The notes under the pieces: generated by a model
What the model saw: the letters and a program-made list of their open reading frames with translations, nothing else
Database searches by the model: none
Told to the model about the DNA's origin: nothing
Program-made: the position numbers and the translations under genes
Sequence record: ON506924
Source of the DNA: Escherichia phage vB_EcoM_SCS4
Strand: one strand, 5' to 3'
DNA length: 64,000 bases
Shown: piece by piece, positions 24,741-32,872 of the stretch
Position numbering within the stretch: the stretch's first letter is position 1
How the letters are laid out: each line of letters begins with the position of its first letter

Positions 24741-26804
24741 CTACATCTTGAACTTTTTAGACATTCCGTTGATGTTAACCAAAGAAGCCAAGATTTGAGA
24801 AACTTCGTTTTCCTCTTCTTTTGATTCTTCTACAANGAATTGATTAAATCCAGCCATTGGACGAACTTCACCAGTTTCCATTAAATGGTCGCCATCATAT
24901 ACTGATTCTTCTAATTGTTCAGAAGGAGGAACGATTGTACCTTCGATTAGATACTTGTTATAAGCAGTTTCTTTCATAAAGTACGTACTTACTTTATTAA
25001 TCTTCAGTAAAATTCCACGCGGTAGAATAACTTCAGCTTCTGATGGAAATCCTGATAAATGACCTGGAACGATAACTTTGATTCGCTCAGCTCCTTTAAT
25101 TACCATACCCACGCTAGTTTCAGCATCTTCATTGGCATATGTAGAATGACTACCCATATGCATTAAATCTTCTGCATCAACGGAACCTTCTCCTTCGCCA
25201 GAAAATACTGCGCCGGAATCATCTAGAGCCATATAGTTTTTACCATGCTCACCGAAGATATTTGGTTTAAGTGATGTCGATACGAAGTTCTTGAAATAGA
25301 ACATTTTATTTTCAATGTTATGACGCAAAGTTTTAAAGGTAACTTCTTGTCCACGGTAAAGTGTAGTTCCTGGAGGAAGAACTGATCCTTTGGCAAAGGC
25401 AGAATCTAACGTCTCGATGTGCTTAATAGCTCGTTCCATATATTCTTCACGGGTAGAATCTGGTTTACCCAAAAGGAACGAGTTCATTTCAACATATGAA
25501 TCTGCACAATAATCTTCAATTACATCAGATTCAGCCTGAGTCAGTCCTTTTGGAGTTACTTCGGTGCTTGCGTATTCATATGCCTGAGCAGCAGATTCAT
25601 TAATCAATTTATAAATGCCATTCATTACAAATTGAATAATAGCTGTCTTTTCATCTGACGTAGCTTTAGAACCTTTAACTAAATCATTNATAATTTTCTT
25701 AATAACATCAAAGCTATTAGAAATATTAATGTCAGCAAGATCGCTTAAAATTTTATCAGTTTTATAATCAAAGAATTCTTTATTCTTTAAATATTCTTGA
25801 GAACCTTGATATGTTATATCGCTCTGCAACTTGATAGATGGATCACGTAAACGTGCATGGGCTAATGCAATATGATTTCGGAAGCTTTCTAGTTCATAAT
25901 CGTTAGATTTAAAACGAGAAGCACTTCTCATACCACCGATAGCTCCTTTGCTAAAGTTTGAACCAATCTGGATAACGCCAGAGTTCATCGGACCTTCTGC
26001 TTTATATACCGGAACTTTAGATTCAAACTCTTGATATTTCTTGGCAGCGAAGCTATCACCCTGAAGTGAAGCATCAACAGTAGAATATTGAGCTTGTGCT
26101 GCTAATCGACGACTAATTTTAGTTTTCTGAATAACAGCTTGATCAGTGCGCTTATCATTTTCTAAAGCAATAGAAGCAGCAACAGCGACAGCTTTAGGAA
26201 CAGCATTACCTGTTTTAACGTCTACATAAACATCACCAACCTTTGATTCAACTTTTGTGAATAACTCAGTTGAAATAGGAGGTACACCTGGAATGTCTTC
26301 TAAATTGGCATTTTTACGGTAAACCATAATATATGCATACTTTTTATCGTAATCCCAGAGTTCCTTAAGAAGGACGTATCTGCCACCTGAACGACTACGG
26401 ATAAGTCTATCAGCAATAACTTGAATTTGTCGAGCTTGGCCAGCAGTTTTAGACTTAAGAATACGAAGCATACAAGCATCAATTTTATACTGACGCATTG
26501 TTTGCATTGCAACAGTAAAAACTGAATTGATATAATTAATTGGGCTTGGACCAAGACCTTTTAATTTAGCAATTGAACCTTTAGCAGTTAATGTAAAAGG
26601 AACAATATGCATCATTTTATCGCCCATCTTTAAATCGCGATTAGTATCACCTCCAGATGTATAGGTACATAAACGAAATCCTGGTTGTTCAATTGCATCA
26701 TCAACGTGAACTGAAAAAATTTGTGGTATTTTCTTCTTTGGATTTAAGTTTGTAATCGGAAGAGTAGTATCTTCGTCAAATAATTCTGTAATGAGTTCCA
26801 TCAT
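24741..26804 (-). CDS. alt: Alt ADP-ribosyltransferase, packaged internal head protein
   Basis: 687-aa ORF, length and position match T4 Alt (start may be the second Met). Confidence 0.9.
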   Translation of the reverse strand: MMELITELFDEDTTLPITNLNPKKKIPQIFSVHVDDAIEQPGFRLCTYTSGGDTNRDLKMGDKMMHIVPFTLTAKGSIAKLKGLGPSPINYINSVFTVAMQTMRQYKIDACMLRILKSKTAGQARQIQVIADRLIRSRSGGRYVLLKELWDYDKKYAYIMVYRKNANLEDIPGVPPISTELFTKVESKVGDVYVDVKTGNAVPKAVAVAASIALENDKRTDQAVIQKTKISRRLAAQAQYSTVDASLQGDSFAAKKYQEFESKVPVYKAEGPMNSGVIQIGSNFSKGAIGGMRSASRFKSNDYELESFRNHIALAHARLRDPSIKLQSDITYQGSQEYLKNKEFFDYKTDKILSDLADINISNSFDVIKKIXNDLVKGSKATSDEKTAIIQFVMNGIYKLINESAAQAYEYASTEVTPKGLTQAESDVIEDYCADSYVEMNSFLLGKPDSTREEYMERAIKHIETLDSAFAKGSVLPPGTTLYRGQEVTFKTLRHNIENKMFYFKNFVSTSLKPNIFGEHGKNYMALDDSGAVFSGEGEGSVDAEDLMHMGSHSTYANEDAETSVGMVIKGAERIKVIVPGHLSGFPSEAEVILPRGILLKINKVSTYFMKETAYNKYLIEGTIVPPSEQLEESVYDGDHLMETGEVRPMAGFNQFXVEESKEEENEVSQILASLVNINGMSKKFKM

Positions 26805-26837
26805 ATCCTNTCNAGTGTTTANTCTATTTATAAAATT

Positions 26838-26855
26838 AAAGGCCCGAAGGCCTTT
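26838..26855 (-). terminator. hairpin AAAGGCC-TTCG-GGCCTTT (minus-strand sense) upstream of alt
   Basis: seen in sequence between alt start and the upstream small ORF. Confidence 0.5.
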
Positions 26856-27042
26856 AATAATCTATAGGTAAGAGAGTACGATATATTTCAAACTTTGGAC
26901 CTTTTTCATAAGCATCAAATGTTTCTGTGAATTTATTATAAGCGTATGCATCTACAAATTCGAGAATGACTTGTGATACAGAAGTAGAAACATCTCCACC
27001 TTCTTTTTGAGCAATGACAATTGTTTCTAAGTAAGCTTTCAT
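26854..27042 (-). CDS. hypothetical protein (62 aa; T4 alt.1 position)
   Basis: small ORF overlapping gene 30 stop by 4 nt. Confidence 0.6.
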   Translation of the reverse strand: MKAYLETIVIAQKEGGDVSTSVSQVILEFVDAYAYNKFTETFDAYEKGPKFEIYRTLLPIDY

Positions 27043-28502
27043 AAACCAGTTACCTCATGAAAATCACCAAATACATCTTCGAACGTATTAGCTTTAGTTT
27101 TATCTTCACGTAAACGAATCGCAATCGGAAGAAATAATTTAACGTAATCAGTGCGGCCATCAGATTTTAACCAACCGTTGCATTCGCACTCTAGAATTTT
27201 TCCAATATAATAANTTTGGTTTTCCATAATGCGAGTACGGTCAAGCTCATGTGATTTTACGCCGGCTTTATCTTTTAAGCCTGAACCAGCATTTACTTTA
27301 ATTTTTCCACACTCTGATTCAAGAATAAATCCACCTGCTTTAGTAGGGTCTTTACGGTGAGGATAAATTCCTACAATTTTTAAATCAACATCAATTACTT
27401 CTTTAAATTTATAGAGATTTTTTGAACGAGCATTTTCCCATAATCCATCGATATTTTTGAGAATAATACCTTCAAGACCTTGGTCAATATACTTTTTGTA
27501 AATTACCTTAGCTTCATCTAGGTTATTTACTATCTGGTTTTCAATTAAAATTACTTTATCATAACCTGATGTCATTTGTTCTAGTTTAGAAAAACGTACA
27601 TCATATTTTAAACGAAATGCTGGAAGACCGTATATTTCTACCAACGGAACATAATCCCAGACCTGAAACTTCATGCATTGAGCTTCTTTTTCTGAAATAG
27701 TTCCCTTTAAAGATTTATTAGCGATTCCATTAGAAGTAGTACGTGATTCAGCTACTTCAGCAAACTCTTTAGCTTTACTAATTTCAGGATAAGCATCAAA
27801 AAGAAAATCTAGGCCTTCTGGCTCCTTTTTAACTTGCTCATGGTATACCAATTCGCCATCAATTAACACACCTTCTGGATGAATCTGGCGGGCTTCAGCG
27901 GTCATTTTGATTAACTCTTCCTTAAGAAGATCTAATCCTAGATATTCATTACCAGCTCGTGATAAAAGACGGACATCATCTAATTCATCACCTCTAACTT
28001 CGGCAAAGCACCGAGCTCCATCAGCTTTTAACTGGGCAAAGGCTGGAAATTTGATATTCTTATTAATGCCTTTTTCATCATAAGAACTTGCAAGCATTTG
28101 AGGTTGTTCAGGAATTAAACCTGGCCAAACTTTGTTTGCAATAGATACTGAAGCACCACATTCAAGGTCTCGCATCATCACTCGACGCAAAACTTCAACA
28201 TCATCTTTTTTACCATCGGTGATATATCCAGATAATTCCTCAATTGCCGCATTTCCGGTCAATTTCCGAGTAGCTAACGTGAATTCAATGAAGTCAAGCA
28301 TATCGGTAAGAGTCAACATTCCAAAACTCTGGGTAGCAATACCAGATTTAGGCCATTTCTTGATATAATACTGCAACCCACGAGAATAAGTCAGACGATA
28401 TACTCGTTTAAGCAATTCATTATCTTTATTCTTTTCAAGAATTGCTTGCTTCTGCTTAGTTGAACCAATAGATGCTATTTCGTTCAGAATTTTAAGAATC
28501 AT
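27039..28502 (-). CDS. 30: ATP-dependent DNA ligase gp30 (487 aa)
   Basis: sequence matches T4 DNA ligase, including the active-site KADG motif (AQLKADGARCF). Confidence 0.97.
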   Translation of the reverse strand: MILKILNEIASIGSTKQKQAILEKNKDNELLKRVYRLTYSRGLQYYIKKWPKSGIATQSFGMLTLTDMLDFIEFTLATRKLTGNAAIEELSGYITDGKKDDVEVLRRVMMRDLECGASVSIANKVWPGLIPEQPQMLASSYDEKGINKNIKFPAFAQLKADGARCFAEVRGDELDDVRLLSRAGNEYLGLDLLKEELIKMTAEARQIHPEGVLIDGELVYHEQVKKEPEGLDFLFDAYPEISKAKEFAEVAESRTTSNGIANKSLKGTISEKEAQCMKFQVWDYVPLVEIYGLPAFRLKYDVRFSKLEQMTSGYDKVILIENQIVNNLDEAKVIYKKYIDQGLEGIILKNIDGLWENARSKNLYKFKEVIDVDLKIVGIYPHRKDPTKAGGFILESECGKIKVNAGSGLKDKAGVKSHELDRTRIMENQXYYIGKILECECNGWLKSDGRTDYVKLFLPIAIRLREDKTKANTFEDVFGDFHEVTGL

Positions 28503-28768
28503 TGTTCATCCTTTAGAGTTTGGTTTACAGCTCTATTATAAATCAATTCATCATTAAGCTCAGTCAAAGACCTATGGTACGTGGTTCTAACTTTATTTCC
28601 TTGCATCCAGTGTTTGACGTAAATGAAACCTTGCTCTACACATTTTTTAAAAATTCGTTCGTCTTTTTGAGCTCGGAATTCTGGATTGCATCTAAAAAAT
28701 TGATTTACGTGACCGTAATCACGTGTAGTATTACCTTCATTTTCATAAATAGTGTGAACAACAAACAT
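28499..28768 (-). CDS. 30.1: hypothetical protein (T4 30.1 position)
   Basis: 89-aa ORF collinear with T4. Confidence 0.7.
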   Translation of the reverse strand: MFVVHTIYENEGNTTRDYGHVNQFFRCNPEFRAQKDERIFKKCVEQGFIYVKHWMQGNKVRTTYHRSLTELNDELIYNRAVNQTLKDEQ

Positions 28769-29622
28769 TAGAATGCTCCTTGGAAAATATTATCACCACT
28801 ACCACTAGTAAGTCTATTAAAATACCCTGCATCACCAGGCTTAATATAACTCCATGTATGGAATGGATGCATCTGATGTGAGTGCGTATAATATGGATGA
28901 TATGGATTATAAGGATTAAATCCAGGAGTTCTCCAGGTAGTGTTCCAACGAAAAGAATCATTTTTAATCATCTTTTCAATTACATCTTTTATAGCTTTTT
29001 CACTATCAAAACTTTCTTTATTTTCCTTTGGTGAAAAAAGCTTATTCTCTACATCGTTCCATGTATAAACTCGCTGAGCGGTTTTTGGAATACTGTCACG
29101 TTCCCCTCGAGCCATCCAATACACAGGAACACGTAATATTTCACTTGCATGATCGCAGTGGTGAGCGAGATCGTCAATATAACAAATTACATTATATTTC
29201 TCTTTTGCCTTTTTGAACAACTCTTCTTTTGAAGAATCATGACCACACATCATTACTTCTGAGAAGGCACCAGGAAAAAGAGCATTCAAATTAAATTGAC
29301 GATTCAACAAAGCGTCAATAGAATCACCCAATGCTGTAACAGCTACAAAATTATAATCTTCTTTTAATTTGTTAATTACACACAGAGCATCTTTATATGG
29401 AGACAAGTAACGAATAAAATCTGATCGATTGTATTTTTCAATTAACTTGACGCCAAGTTCTTCATCACAGTTAAAGAGTTTACCAGGAGAAATAAATTTC
29501 TCATCTTGGATCATTTTTAAAATATGTTCTAACGGAAGATTATATTTCTGAGCAAAATAAGGAAGGCCTGATTGCCAGCTTAAACATACTCCATCAATAT
29601 CAGTTAAAATAGTAGGCTTCAT
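28768..29622 (-). CDS. 30.2: HAD-superfamily phosphatase/nucleotidase-like protein (T4 30.2 position)
   Basis: N-terminal HAD motif I (ILTDIDGV) and a later DD motif (YIDDLAHH); aromatic/His-rich C-terminal tail. Confidence 0.75.
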   Translation of the reverse strand: MKPTILTDIDGVCLSWQSGLPYFAQKYNLPLEHILKMIQDEKFISPGKLFNCDEELGVKLIEKYNRSDFIRYLSPYKDALCVINKLKEDYNFVAVTALGDSIDALLNRQFNLNALFPGAFSEVMMCGHDSSKEELFKKAKEKYNVICYIDDLAHHCDHASEILRVPVYWMARGERDSIPKTAQRVYTWNDVENKLFSPKENKESFDSEKAIKDVIEKMIKNDSFRWNTTWRTPGFNPYNPYHPYYTHSHQMHPFHTWSYIKPGDAGYFNRLTSGSGDNIFQGAF

Positions 29623-30083
29623 AGAGAGTCTCTTAATAGGTTTAACACATCAATAAATTCAGCTTCGGTTAGTATTGTATCATCTTTTGTTAGACCACTA
29701 GCCATGCTGTGCTTCAAAACTTTTCCTTTCGAGGCTTGTAATGCATCACGAAAGCCCTTGTTTTGGATCGCTGCTTCAAAATATGCATTTGTGTATAATT
29801 CTTTCCACGCTGAGGAGTATCTTGAAAACGGAACTCCAAGCCAGAAGAGGGTCCCACGGTCCTGAGCTCTTGCATAAGACCTTCCAGCTTGTTGGGCGGC
29901 AAGCCCTGATAACCCAAATATACGACGTTGTTGTTCAACATTTTTCACCTTGCACCCTTGAAGGAATCCTTCTAGACCTCCAAATTGAATACCATCCATA
30001 ACGAAAGGCCATTGAGCGAAATTACTTAATGCACATGATGGCCACTTAAAATTGCTTCTAATCTCTAACTCAGACATTTTCAA
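29619..30083 (-). CDS. 30.3: YbiA/NADAR-like (DUF1768-type) protein (T4 30.3 position)
   Basis: segment ALSNFAQWPFVMDGIQFGGLEGFLQGCK resembles the E. coli YbiA motif FSNFAAWPIKVDGKTWPTSEHYFQAQK as I recall it. Confidence 0.75.
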   Translation of the reverse strand: MKMSELEIRSNFKWPSCALSNFAQWPFVMDGIQFGGLEGFLQGCKVKNVEQQRRIFGLSGLAAQQAGRSYARAQDRGTLFWLGVPFSRYSSAWKELYTNAYFEAAIQNKGFRDALQASKGKVLKHSMASGLTKDDTILTEAEFIDVLNLLRDSL

Positions 30084-30276
30084 TGCTTATAATTTCAACA
30101 TCAGCCCAATGACCATAGCAAGGAAGACGAAATTCAACTGGCCAGTTAGGGTCCTTTTCTAATATAATAGACTTAACTTGTGGTTCTTCATGTTCATCAG
30201 TATATGGATTTTTATCTGTTACTTTATATGTGACCTTAATGTACTGAATTCCAAAAATCTTATTAATTATATTCAT
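30070..30276 (-). CDS. hypothetical protein (30.4-like)
   Basis: 68-aa ORF in an overlapping operon-like array. Confidence 0.6.
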   Translation of the reverse strand: MNIINKIFGIQYIKVTYKVTDKNPYTDEHEEPQVKSIILEKDPNWPVEFRLPCYGHWADVEIISIENV

Positions 30277-30470
30277 ACTAATTCCTTTAATCCGTAAATA
30301 GGAGATAATTCATCACCCATACGAAGGTCTTCATTTCCATCTACCCAGGAAACAATATAAGCCTCTTTTATTTGAATACCACTCCATTTAAATGGAGGTA
30401 GAACCTTAGAAATTAATCCAGGTATACCAACTCCCTTTAATTCAACAGTTTGACCTAAAAAGAATTTCAT
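30273..30470 (-). CDS. hypothetical protein (30.5-like)
   Basis: 65-aa ORF with 4-nt overlap to neighbour. Confidence 0.6.
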   Translation of the reverse strand: MKFFLGQTVELKGVGIPGLISKVLPPFKWSGIQIKEAYIVSWVDGNEDLRMGDELSPIYGLKELV

Positions 30471-30757
30471 TAGAACCTCATCTGAAAACCGTGCGATTTA
30501 ACATTACCGCCGCCAATATCAGAAATGTTAATTTCGCGCGCAATTGAAGGGTCAATGTCAATTTCACGATTGAGTTTAGTGATAGCTAAAGTATCGCGCC
30601 CATTTACAGTACGGAACTCTAAAGGACAAACCACATCAACGTAGTTTTTAATCGATTCACTGGTAGGCTGCAAATGAGCAGGAAGGTCTTTGGGCGCCTT
30701 TGAGAAAACCACTTCACAGAAATTTTTACGGGTATCAAAATAAGTAGTCATAAACAT
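30470..30757 (-). CDS. hypothetical protein (30.6-like)
   Basis: 95-aa ORF. Confidence 0.65.
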   Translation of the reverse strand: MFMTTYFDTRKNFCEVVFSKAPKDLPAHLQPTSESIKNYVDVVCPLEFRTVNGRDTLAITKLNREIDIDPSIAREINISDIGGGNVKSHGFQMRF

Positions 30758-30774
30758 GGTATTTTCCTCAGTAA

Positions 30775-30788
30775 GGGGCCGAAGCCCC
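30775..30788 (-). terminator. hairpin GGGGC-TTCG-GCCCC (minus-strand sense)
   Basis: seen in sequence between two minus-strand ORFs. Confidence 0.5.
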
Positions 30789-30798
30789 TCATTTTATT

Positions 30799-31164
30799 TT
30801 AAATATCAAATTCATTAAGAACTACATCAAAGATTGCTTCGAGATGTTCAGGTTTAGCTCTGTTACTCAGAATATGACGAATCCAAGTTTTAACCAAAAG
30901 CTTGCGATTAGCACCATTCCAACAAGGATGAGTCCCTAAATCGCGTTGACGAAAATCATCATCCAGAGCGATTTTAAAGTTGGAACCTTCCATTGTGATT
31001 GAAACCGTGATGCCATTTTCAAATCGCATATAAACGTAATTAGGAGTCATATACTGTTCAATTTCGCATACTGATCCATTTTGATGTTTCCAAAGGCAAA
31101 TAGTATCAATAGAACCTGCAATACCATTAGAAACATATTTACGTTCAAAGTTGATGTAGTTCAT
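30799..31164 (-). CDS. hypothetical protein (30.7-like)
   Basis: 121-aa ORF. Confidence 0.7.
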   Translation of the reverse strand: MNYINFERKYVSNGIAGSIDTICLWKHQNGSVCEIEQYMTPNYVYMRFENGITVSITMEGSNFKIALDDDFRQRDLGTHPCWNGANRKLLVKTWIRHILSNRAKPEHLEAIFDVVLNEFDI

Positions 31165-31232
31165 TTTTATTCTCCGTGATGTTTAATTGCGGTACAGGTA
31201 TATAATATCATATCCTGTACCAAAGTAAACAA

Positions 31233-31565
31233 TTATTTTACTACTTTCCAATGCTTCATGTCAAGTTTACCAACTTTTTTCATCTTCTCAATTAAGCGTT
31301 CGGCACGTTGGCGAGCTGTAACATAATACCATTCACCTAATTCATTTTGTTCAATTTTTCCAACGATTACTGTATTCAATTCATAAATCCAACCGGTAAA
31401 GAAATTATGAACTTGAATTGTAAAGGTGAAATCTGTTCCCATACCTTCTGTTGTTTCTACTTCAATAATATCACCTTCAACTGCCATTAAGAACCACATA
31501 GTTTCATTATATTTACCATTGAAGCATTTAGTTTTAACTGCAGCGTTCAGATTAATCGTTTTCAT
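31233..31565 (-). CDS. hypothetical protein (30.8-like)
   Basis: 110-aa ORF. Confidence 0.7.
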   Translation of the reverse strand: MKTINLNAAVKTKCFNGKYNETMWFLMAVEGDIIEVETTEGMGTDFTFTIQVHNFFTGWIYELNTVIVGKIEQNELGEWYYVTARQRAERLIEKMKKVGKLDMKHWKVVK

Positions 31566-31651
31566 TTTATTCTCCTTTGTTTGTGTAAGATAATACTATC
31601 ACAAAGGAACCATATTGTAAACAACTTTGTGCAATCTTTGGAAAATAAAAA

Positions 31652-31671
31652 AGGACTCCCGAAGGAGTCCT
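31652..31671 (-). terminator. hairpin GGACTCC-TTCG-GGAGTCC (minus-strand sense)
   Basis: 8-bp stem with UUCG loop seen in sequence. Confidence 0.5.
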
Positions 31672-31675
31672 CAAC

Positions 31676-31852
31676 TTATGCTTTCTGCTTACCAAAACGA
31701 GAAGCATCATCTCGAAGAACCGCACGTGCTCGGCGCATGATCTTCTCAACAGTTTGATTGATACGAGAGTTCGACCCACGCTTGTAGCCAGCGCGTTTAG
31801 AATCACCAACTTTCTTTTCAACTGCTTTCTTTGCTTTAACTTGTTTTGCCAT
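31676..31852 (-). CDS. small highly basic protein (58 aa; 30.9-like)
   Basis: start placed at MAKQVKAKK, which has an AAGAGA RBS; track ORF extends further upstream without RBS support. Confidence 0.6.
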   Translation of the reverse strand: MAKQVKAKKAVEKKVGDSKRAGYKRGSNSRINQTVEKIMRRARAVLRDDASRFGKQKA

Positions 31853-32140
31853 TATAAATTCTCTTTTAAATGAAAATGCAGGACTTATTGGCATTGCCTG
31901 CGCAAGCCCTCAAGGGGGTACTTAGGTTTTGAATATTTACCGACAGGATAACCATAAACCTCGTCATCATACCACCAAGACTTACACAGATAACACTTTT
32001 CTGACGCATGATAGTAACATTCAAGAGGTACACCGTAAAACTGCCGGGGTCTTAAAACTATAATGATTCGCAAATCATTAATCAGACAGTTCGACGGCTC
32101 CTCGATTTAGCTCACACTAAGGCAGTGAATCTCCAATAAA

Positions 32141-32389
32141 TTACTTCAATGTTACCACAAAGTGACGAACTGCTTTTCGTGCAGCAGAAGCCAGAGGCTT
32201 AGCATATTTAAGTTCATCTTTTTCCTGAAGCTCAGCAGCTAATGCAGTTTGAGCAGGATTCAGATGTTTGAAATAACGCAGGATTTCAAGAGCTTCGGCT
32301 TCAACATCAATAGATGCGCCATAGTTTTCGTGACCATTATTCCATGCGTTTCGTTGCAGTTCAAGAGCGTGTTGTAATTGTTTAATCAT
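32141..32389 (-). CDS. rIII: rIII lysis-inhibition accessory protein (82 aa)
   Basis: length, sequence and position match T4 rIII. Confidence 0.9.
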   Translation of the reverse strand: MIKQLQHALELQRNAWNNGHENYGASIDVEAEALEILRYFKHLNPAQTALAAELQEKDELKYAKPLASAARKAVRHFVVTLK

Positions 32390-32536
32390 TTAAAAATTCT
32401 CGTTAGAGATTAAAACTCGGTAGTCACGTTCTTCTGAATTTCATCTTCTTTCGACAGATCTCTCAGTTGTAGACTACCACGTAGAATTGTTCGGTTAACA
32501 TATTATTCCGACACCCAATTCATATTATTATTTATA

Positions 32537-32872
32537 TCACTTATAAAGACATGGAATAGCTTTATAGTGGCAAGTGACGAATTTTTGTTTAATTTCTTTT
32601 GGCTGCTTAAGACCCAGAGCTACAAAAGGATGCGGAACGTTTCGAATTTGACCAACTGGAAGAGAAGTCAAATCACCAACTTCGCAGAAACCTTCAGGAA
32701 CATCAGGACCAACAGAGTGAACTACACACAGTTCAGGAACTTCACCTTGAACACGTTTACCGATAATAAGTCCTGATTCTGTAACTTCTTCATCACCGGC
32801 TTGTGCAGGTTCAGAAACTAAAATAACATATTCACCGACAGCACGAATTGGTAGCTGTTGTACTTCAGACAT
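32537..32872 (-). CDS. 31: co-chaperonin gp31 (GroES analogue, 111 aa)
   Basis: sequence [30 protein letters not shown] ... matches T4 gp31. Confidence 0.95.

Follow-up and report, generated by a model that had tools for sequence, protein, structure and literature searches.

What is the function of the short minus-strand open reading frame (ORF) that spans positions 29619–30083 of a 64,000-nucleotide stretch of Escherichia phage vB_EcoM_SCS4 (record ON506924; the whole stretch is called the window here)? An earlier reading made from the DNA letters (the sequence-only reading) had taken its 154-residue product for a NADAR/YbiA-like protein, and had suggested that a phage NADAR could counter DarTG by removing ADP-ribose. 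The first idea is borne out by the profile, motif and fold tests described below. For the second there are published experiments on the T4 protein, to which the window protein is 98% identical (PMC11825919, PMC11125620). We put at about 0.93 the probability that the gene is adfN of a Tequatrovirus and encodes an anti-DarTG1 DNA ADP-ribosylglycohydrolase. The function is already known: papers that appeared between 2023 and 2025 describe it for precisely this gene family, to residue-level detail.

The ORF is a real gene. Its product matches PF08010 (Phage_30_3) with E=1.5e-69 (hmmscan, Pfam), and 1510 phage records contain homologs by tblastn. The Pfam match scores 232.6 bits against a cut-off (gathering score) of 36 and covers the profile at full length (positions 1–138 of 138). 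The PHROGs entry for the gp30.3 family reads ‘unknown function’. Over the 2 kb that surround the ORF, identity to Escherichia phages VEc74 and teqhad is 98%, and the window genome is classed by its sequence as T4-like (Tequatrovirus). The genes follow in the order alt, alt.1, 30 (ligase), 30.1, 30.2, 30.3, 30.4 ... rIII, 31, cd. RB32 and RB69 have the same order, which identifies the ORF as T4 gene 30.3. At the protein level, identity is 98% to T4 gp30.3 and 97% to RB32 gp30.3, and we assign the gene as an intact ortholog of T4 gene 30.3 (adfN).

The sequence-only reading had the right gene and the right peptide, ALSNFAQWPFVMDGIQFGGLEGFLQGCK, which lies at residues 16–43 of a 152-residue protein; only the start needs revision. 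Where translation is taken to begin at the TTG at 30083, the product has 154 residues. Where it begins at the ATG two codons further in, at 30077, the product has 152 residues, as in the annotated orthologs (RB32 annotation), and the published E36/K43 numbering is reproduced only from this position. The ATG is most likely the true start, and the TTG and AAA codons in front of it are probably untranslated. The ATG region overlaps the stop of the upstream gene 30.4 (ATGTCTGA), and the TGA stop overlaps the ATG start of gene 30.2 (ATGA).

To place the protein, an alignment of 46 diverse gp30.3 homologs (35–87% identity) was used as the source of a family profile, of the conservation calls and of an AlphaFold2 model. 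The family profile found E. coli YbiA (2b3w) by hmmsearch with E=0.0033, on the catalytic motif, and hhalign of the family against YbiA gave 93% probability and E=3.4e-7 over residues 17–123. PF08719 (NADAR) was matched individually by 17 of the 46 family members, the best at 1.5e-7. The link of the window protein itself to PF08719 is best described as transitive, by way of the family profile. The motif of YbiA that the sequence-only reading had quoted, FSNFAAWPIKVDGKTWPTSEHYFQAQK, is the one on which the profile match falls; it proved to be exactly residues 29–55 of E. coli K-12 YbiA, and it has 11 of 28 residues in common with the window stretch.

The AlphaFold2 model of AdfN had a mean confidence (predicted local distance difference test, pLDDT) of 93.8 and a predicted template modelling (TM) score of 0.89. 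It has the helical core flanked by two small β-sheets that characterizes the YbiA fold. When it was searched against the PDB with Foldseek, the top three matches were 2b3w, 8bau and 8bat, with probabilities of 0.98–1.00, and all others were at noise level. These are the three solved NADARs: 2b3w is YbiA, 8bau is a Phytophthora NADAR with ADP-ribose and 8bat is the DarT-associated NADAR of Geobacter lovleyi. The best match was YbiA 2b3w (E=3.9e-5, TM scores 0.66 and 0.61). The window protein thus belongs to the NADAR superfamily, in the phage gp30.3 clade, and is a member of neither the YbiA nor the DarG1 family.

Within the core motif, the E-x6-K pair (E36 and K43) is invariant across the 46 homologs. 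In the structure of PnNADAR, the conserved Glu/Lys pair contacts ADP-ribose. A third residue marks the clade. The last strand carries Glu in YbiA, Asp in the BC4488/DarG1 NADARs and His in the phage gp30.3 proteins (PMC11125620). In the window protein, KVLKHS aligns with AKLVEH of YbiA, which brings H123 to the position of YbiA E125, and in the AlphaFold model H123 stands directly after the predicted last strand (residues 120–122).

The C-terminus of the protein can be compared with a natural defective allele. RB69 has an extra T after nucleotide 411, so that it reads ACT TGA where the window reads ACC GAA; as the insertion is absent from the window, the C-terminal helix (residues 138–152; 138–151 in the AlphaFold model) is intact. 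Relative to T4 gp30.3, the window protein has K11 for R, S89 for P and M125 for I, all in variable columns of the alignment, and no functional difference would be expected from these three substitutions. The window allele thus lacks none of the residues and segments that are known to be needed for function.

The requirements themselves come from published work on T4. As cited by Johannesman et al., Schuller et al. 2023 (Mol Cell) identified gp30.3 bioinformatically as a phage NADAR. In vitro, the T4-phage NADAR hydrolysed guanine-linked ADP-ribose on DNA and left thymine-linked ADP-ribose in place (Cihlova et al. 2024, Toxins, PMC11125620). Johannesman et al. (bioRxiv 2024; Nat Commun 2025; PMC11257639, PMC11825919) renamed gp30.3 AdfN and found it necessary and sufficient against DarTG1. 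In the same study, all T-even phages with full-length adfN resisted DarTG1, and deletion of adfN from T4 and T2 made them DarTG1-sensitive by ∼4 logs. RB69, in which the one-base insertion removes the last 15 residues, was sensitive and was rescued by ectopic AdfN. The E36A, K43A and truncated variants were impaired, with E36A and K43A losing most of their function. Purified AdfN stripped ADP-ribose from DarT1-modified DNA and the E36A protein did not; a two-hybrid assay between AdfN and DarT1 was negative, and AdfN had no effect on DarTG2 (PMC11257639, PMC11825919).

Since the window protein is 98% identical to T4 AdfN, differs from it in variable columns and retains the C-terminal helix, we predict, with high confidence, that AdfN is functional and that the phage resists DarTG1. 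The window allele would then behave like T4 AdfN, and its product is predicted to hydrolyse guanine-linked ADP-ribose on DNA. During infection of a DarTG1 host, the DarT1 toxin would ADP-ribosylate guanine bases of the phage DNA and replication would be blocked. AdfN, a 152-residue single-domain enzyme of the NADAR fold, would cut the guanine–ADP-ribose bond, so that unmodified DNA is restored and replication proceeds. It would in effect be an orphan, phage-borne counterpart of the DarG1 antitoxin. Catalysis would be carried out by the Glu36/Lys43 pair together with the clade-specific His123, and full activity would require the C-terminal helix.

Several results weigh against this account, some from our searches and some from the published experiments. 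For the window protein, PF08719 gave no match in Pfam hmmscan even at E≤1, NCBIfam gave none, none of the PADLOC defence models (including DarG) matched, and a single-sequence phmmer search of the PDB returned nothing. The window protein matches PF08010 and not PF08719, and its placement among the NADARs needs profile or structure methods. The sequence-only reading had named a Pfam/HHpred search for PF08719 as its check: the direct match did not appear, PF08010 being found instead, but the link to NADAR was recovered by profile and structure comparison. It had also taken the lack of a NADAR/YbiA profile match as grounds for giving up the assignment, a step to which direct searches alone would have led wrongly.

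On the experimental side, T4 AdfN did not rescue uninfected E. coli from DarT1 toxicity in two independent papers (PMC11125620, PMC11825919), and it rescued non-T-even phages only weakly (PMC11825919). The phage T4-GT7 was still protected in an adfN-dependent manner, so that DNA modification cannot account for the T-even dependence, and the authors propose that an additional T-even-encoded factor is needed for full AdfN activity in vivo (PMC11825919). In the peer-reviewed version, E36A and K43A retained partial rescue, so that catalysis as measured may be an incomplete account (PMC11825919). A toxicity-rescue assay in E. coli, which the sequence-only reading had put forward, would therefore have wrongly dismissed a correct idea; a negative outcome does not count against it, because T4 AdfN fails in uninfected cells yet fully protects phage.

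The coordinates of adfN, of its required residues and of the neighbouring genes are collected in Table 1.

Table 1. The adfN gene, its functional residues and its neighbours (window positions)
Feature	Position	Strand	Remarks
adfN (T4 gene 30.3), coding sequence	29619..30077	−	152 amino acids plus TGA stop; predicted NADAR-superfamily DNA ADP-ribosylglycohydrolase
Codons TTG AAA, 5′ of the ATG	30078..30083	−	Extra in the 154-residue ORF; ortholog starts and published numbering at 30077
NADAR core motif, residues 16–43 (ALSNF...EGFLQGCK)	29949..30032	−	Contains E36 and K43
E36 codon; K43 codon	29970–29972; 29949–29951	−	Invariant in 46 homologs; align to YbiA E48 and K55
H123, end of last β-strand	29709..29711	−	gp30.3-clade marker; invariant in 46 homologs
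C-terminal α-helix, residues 138–152	29622..29666	−	Intact in window; missing from non-functional RB69 allele
Gene 30.4, upstream neighbour	30070..30276	−	ORF list; PHROG 2042, E=2.2e-35; RB32 annotation; junction sequence
Gene 30.2	28768..29622	−	Context gene; predicted HAD-fold hydrolase with disordered C-terminal tail
Gene 30.1	28499–28768	−	Pfam DUF3045
DNA ligase gp30	27039–28502	−	PF01068, DNA_ligase_A_M, E=1.4e-32
alt.1	26854–27042	−	Downstream, same orientation
Alt ADP-ribosyltransferase	24741–26804	−	PF03496, ADPrib_exo_Tox, E=4.9e-20

The proposed T-even factor might be encoded in the same overlapping block of genes, the most obvious candidate being the translationally coupled HAD-fold gp30.2, although we regard this as improbable. 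Such a protein might, for example, act on ADP-ribose after its release or on an intermediate that carries phosphate, or it might stabilize or localize AdfN. To see how far the two genes travel together, we used 80 viral loci from IMG/VR that carry a gp30.3-type gene, with queries that did not include Alt. A HAD gene lay directly downstream of the NADAR gene in 14 of the 80 loci, namely in one locus at 46% identity and in each of the 13 loci at ≥84% for which downstream sequence exists. Among the 66 diverged loci (≤46% identity), a HAD gene was found within 4 kb in only six. In five of these six it adjoined the ligase gene; the sixth was a weak 27% match with no ligase. The HAD gene thus tracks the ligase, not the NADAR, in diverged loci, and the 30.2–30.3 pairing is therefore synteny among close relatives. 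A conserved functional module of 30.2 and 30.3 was rejected as a general rule on these counts. The adjacency data speak weakly against gp30.2 as the potentiating factor. RB69, which is rescued by ectopic AdfN, carries 30.2.

As regards gp30.2 itself, the sequence-only reading had called the protein at 28768–29622 HAD-like, and motifs, AlphaFold model and PDB matches all agree that this is a genuine HAD-fold protein. It carries the four HAD motifs (DxD, S/T, K, DD) on a Rossmann-like core: D8-x-D10-G11, K132 and D150-D151 do not vary among 41 homologs, and T96 is nearly invariant (≥90%). The core of the AlphaFold model has pLDDT >90, and residues 242–284 fall below 50. The model gave 120 PDB matches at E≤0.001; all 50 among the matches listed were HAD proteins, and the best length-normalized structural matches, again among those listed, were 5′(3′)-deoxyribonucleotidases. 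The sole sequence-profile match was also to a 5′(3′)-deoxyribonucleotidase (2jao, E=0.037), and no HAD model of Pfam or NCBIfam matched. Disorder is predicted for the C-terminal 40–80 residues, whose length differs widely among homologs; in the window, the disordered tail (residues ∼242–284) is rich in His, Pro, Tyr and Asn.

The partial rescue by E36A and K43A, and the need of AdfN for an additional T-even factor in vivo, would also suit a protein that protects mainly without catalysis, either by binding ADP-ribosylated DNA or by shielding or recruiting another factor, with the hydrolase activity secondary. The authors of the T4 work cite another phage NADAR that works without enzymatic activity. 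We consider this very unlikely for AdfN, given that the catalytic residues are invariant across the 46 diverged homologs, that the purified protein, unlike E36A, removes ADP-ribose from DNA, and that no two-hybrid interaction with DarT1 was seen.

A second explanation, which we hold to be just as doubtful, makes the protein one that reverses or edits marks set by the phage's own ADP-ribosyltransferases (Alt, or ModA/ModB), for instance by taking ADP-ribose or RNA chains off host proteins or nucleic acids, so that Alt and AdfN would form a writer–eraser pair. This link was raised in the sequence-only reading, and the two genes do share a same-strand block in T4-like phages, including the Acinetobacter phage Konradin. 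However, NADAR activity is known to be specific for guanine-linked ADP-ribose on DNA, whereas Alt modifies arginine on proteins. The HAD-like gene, the ligase and Alt named as neighbours are all present in the window, but Alt is not adjacent: 30.2, 30.1, the ligase gene and alt.1 lie between, and Alt is ∼2.8 kb downstream. The order 30.3–30.2–ligase–alt.1–Alt is kept in Konradin, a Twarogvirinae phage with 43% AdfN identity. In contrast, none of 30.2, the ligase or Alt was found within 5 kb of the gp30.3-type gene in Aeromonas PS49, Rhizobium RHph_Y68 (Pootjesviridae) or Ralstonia RSP15 (Ackermannviridae). In T4-like phages adfN and alt are separated by the ligase block, and this block was absent within 4 kb in 61 of the 80 viral loci, a count whose queries did not include Alt itself. 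The DarTG1 phenotype is, moreover, enough to explain retention of the gene. A functional link between AdfN and Alt has no evidence beyond their common synteny in T4-like phages, and the suggested functional tie to the neighbouring genes is not supported.

E. coli YbiA and its plant homologs have a described damage-control role in the riboflavin pathway. The least probable explanation of all, a YbiA-type housekeeping N-glycosidase that hydrolyses reactive intermediates of this pathway and is carried as a phage auxiliary metabolic gene, accords with the fold and Glu/Lys motif shared with YbiA and with the label ‘swarming motility YbiA-like protein’ on homologs in some phage records, but an invariant His replaces the YbiA-family marker Glu (E125) in the last strand, the published phylogeny groups the gp30.3 clade nearest the DarT1-associated NADARs and not YbiA (Johannesman et al.), and the T4 protein has demonstrated DNA de-ADP-ribosylation and a DarTG1 phenotype.

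Returning to AdfN as a DNA ADP-ribosylglycohydrolase, the clade is broader than the ‘T4 superfamily’. NADARs of the gp30.3 clade with 31–38% identity occur outside the Straboviridae in Pootjesviridae (Rhizobium phage RHph_Y68), Ackermannviridae (Ralstonia phage RSP15) and Brevundimonas jumbo phages of >300 kb. The genes outside the Straboviridae sit in unrelated contexts, that of RSP15 inside a cluster of transfer RNA genes. In Konradin, a putative ADP-ribose pyrophosphatase gene (NudE-like; 1924–2448 in locus coordinates) lies beside pseT, ∼2.5 kb upstream of the gp30.3 homolog, so that this early-gene region has a further function related to ADP-ribose.

We noted that adfN is disrupted in several deposited T4-like phages. 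Two proteins, P0014 and P0017 of vB_Eco_NR1, are chimeric and change from one to the other of the adfN and 30.3′ frames. AdfN is N-terminally truncated in SV76 (P0007) and UGJNEcP4 (P0016), and vB_EcoM-RPN226 encodes a fusion (P0051) of the gp30.8 N-terminus with AdfN residues ∼103–152. The last of these implies a deletion of 30.7–30.4 together with the catalytic half of adfN. If such disruptions are true and not assembly errors, RB69 would not be the sole phage to lack AdfN naturally, and DarTG1 sensitivity would be expected of the others too.

The 30.3′ frame is a nested ORF of 75 residues in the +1 frame inside adfN (29714–29941, minus strand), annotated in T4 as gene 30.3′. It underlies the Pfam family DUF2883 (PF11097), which it matches with E=6e-51. 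The window, T4, RB32 and two Dhakavirus phages have this frame open, whereas a stop breaks it in RB69 and all diverged homologs lack it. We judge a genuine overlapping gene unlikely, as the RB69 frame is broken and the diverged homologs lack it; 30.3′ seems to have arisen as a side effect of the adfN frame, and DUF2883 may be spurious.

Three elements lie on the upstream side. A GC-rich perfect hairpin (AGGGGCCGAAGCCCCT) occupies 30774–30789, in the spacer between 30.7 and 30.6; a near-consensus sigma-70-like site, TTGACA-18-TAAAAT (11/12), stands just upstream of 30.7 (31264–31235, minus strand); and a terminator-like hairpin with a T-run follows directly after 30.9 (31672–31651, minus strand). 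The transcription unit that carries adfN may be delimited by these three elements. A promoter and terminator scan of 28400–32600 gave 19 promoter-like sites, compared to 14.5±3.2 in shuffled sequences, and so no excess over the shuffle expectation. Forty-one short runs of N, 44 bases in all, occur in the window (e.g. at 24836, 25689, 26810–26822 and 27214) and cause X residues in the translated Alt and DNA ligase; none of the 44 falls within 28768–30276.

What this locus offers is the case of a lytic phage that would erase a defence-written DNA mark with an orphan, antitoxin-like enzyme. The practical value lies in annotation, since many ‘hypothetical protein’ records can be renamed adfN and the window phage becomes predictable as DarTG1-resistant. 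The useful outputs of the present analysis are the adfN annotation and the negative result on HAD linkage.

The window protein can be compared with the closest known NADAR systems. E. coli YbiA (2b3w) is the best structural match and shares the SNFA-WP-DG-E-x6-K motif, but identity is only ∼19%, Glu125 takes the place of His123, and the gene is a chromosomal housekeeping/DNA-damage-operon gene between rhlE and dinG. YbiA gave no protection against DarT1 in vivo (PMC11125620). AdfN(Bas32) and AdfN(Bas60), NADARs of T5-like and Vequintavirinae phages, are likewise phage-encoded and reverse guanine ADP-ribosylation by DarT1; they belong, however, to other NADAR clades, were independently acquired and need no additional phage factor.

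The DarG1 or DarT1-associated NADAR antitoxins (the BC4488 family; Geobacter lovleyi 8bat) have the same fold (Foldseek probability 0.98), remove ADP-ribose from guanine in DNA and are reported as the phylogenetically nearest clade. Unlike them, the window adfN is an orphan with 30.4 and 30.2 as its neighbours; no DarT-like domain was found in the surrounding genes by Pfam scans, and PADLOC gave no match. The window protein has His123 where DarG1-type NADARs have Asp in the last strand. AdfN also does without their N-terminal extension, as stated in the published work on AdfN, its core motif starting at residue 16 of 152, and T4 AdfN is no antitoxin in uninfected E. coli. T4 AdfN (gp30.3) agrees with the window protein in its length of 152 residues, its 98% identity, its genomic position, the E36/K43/H123 set and the intact C-terminal helix, and it differs from it in three substitutions only, at the variable positions 11, 89 and 125.

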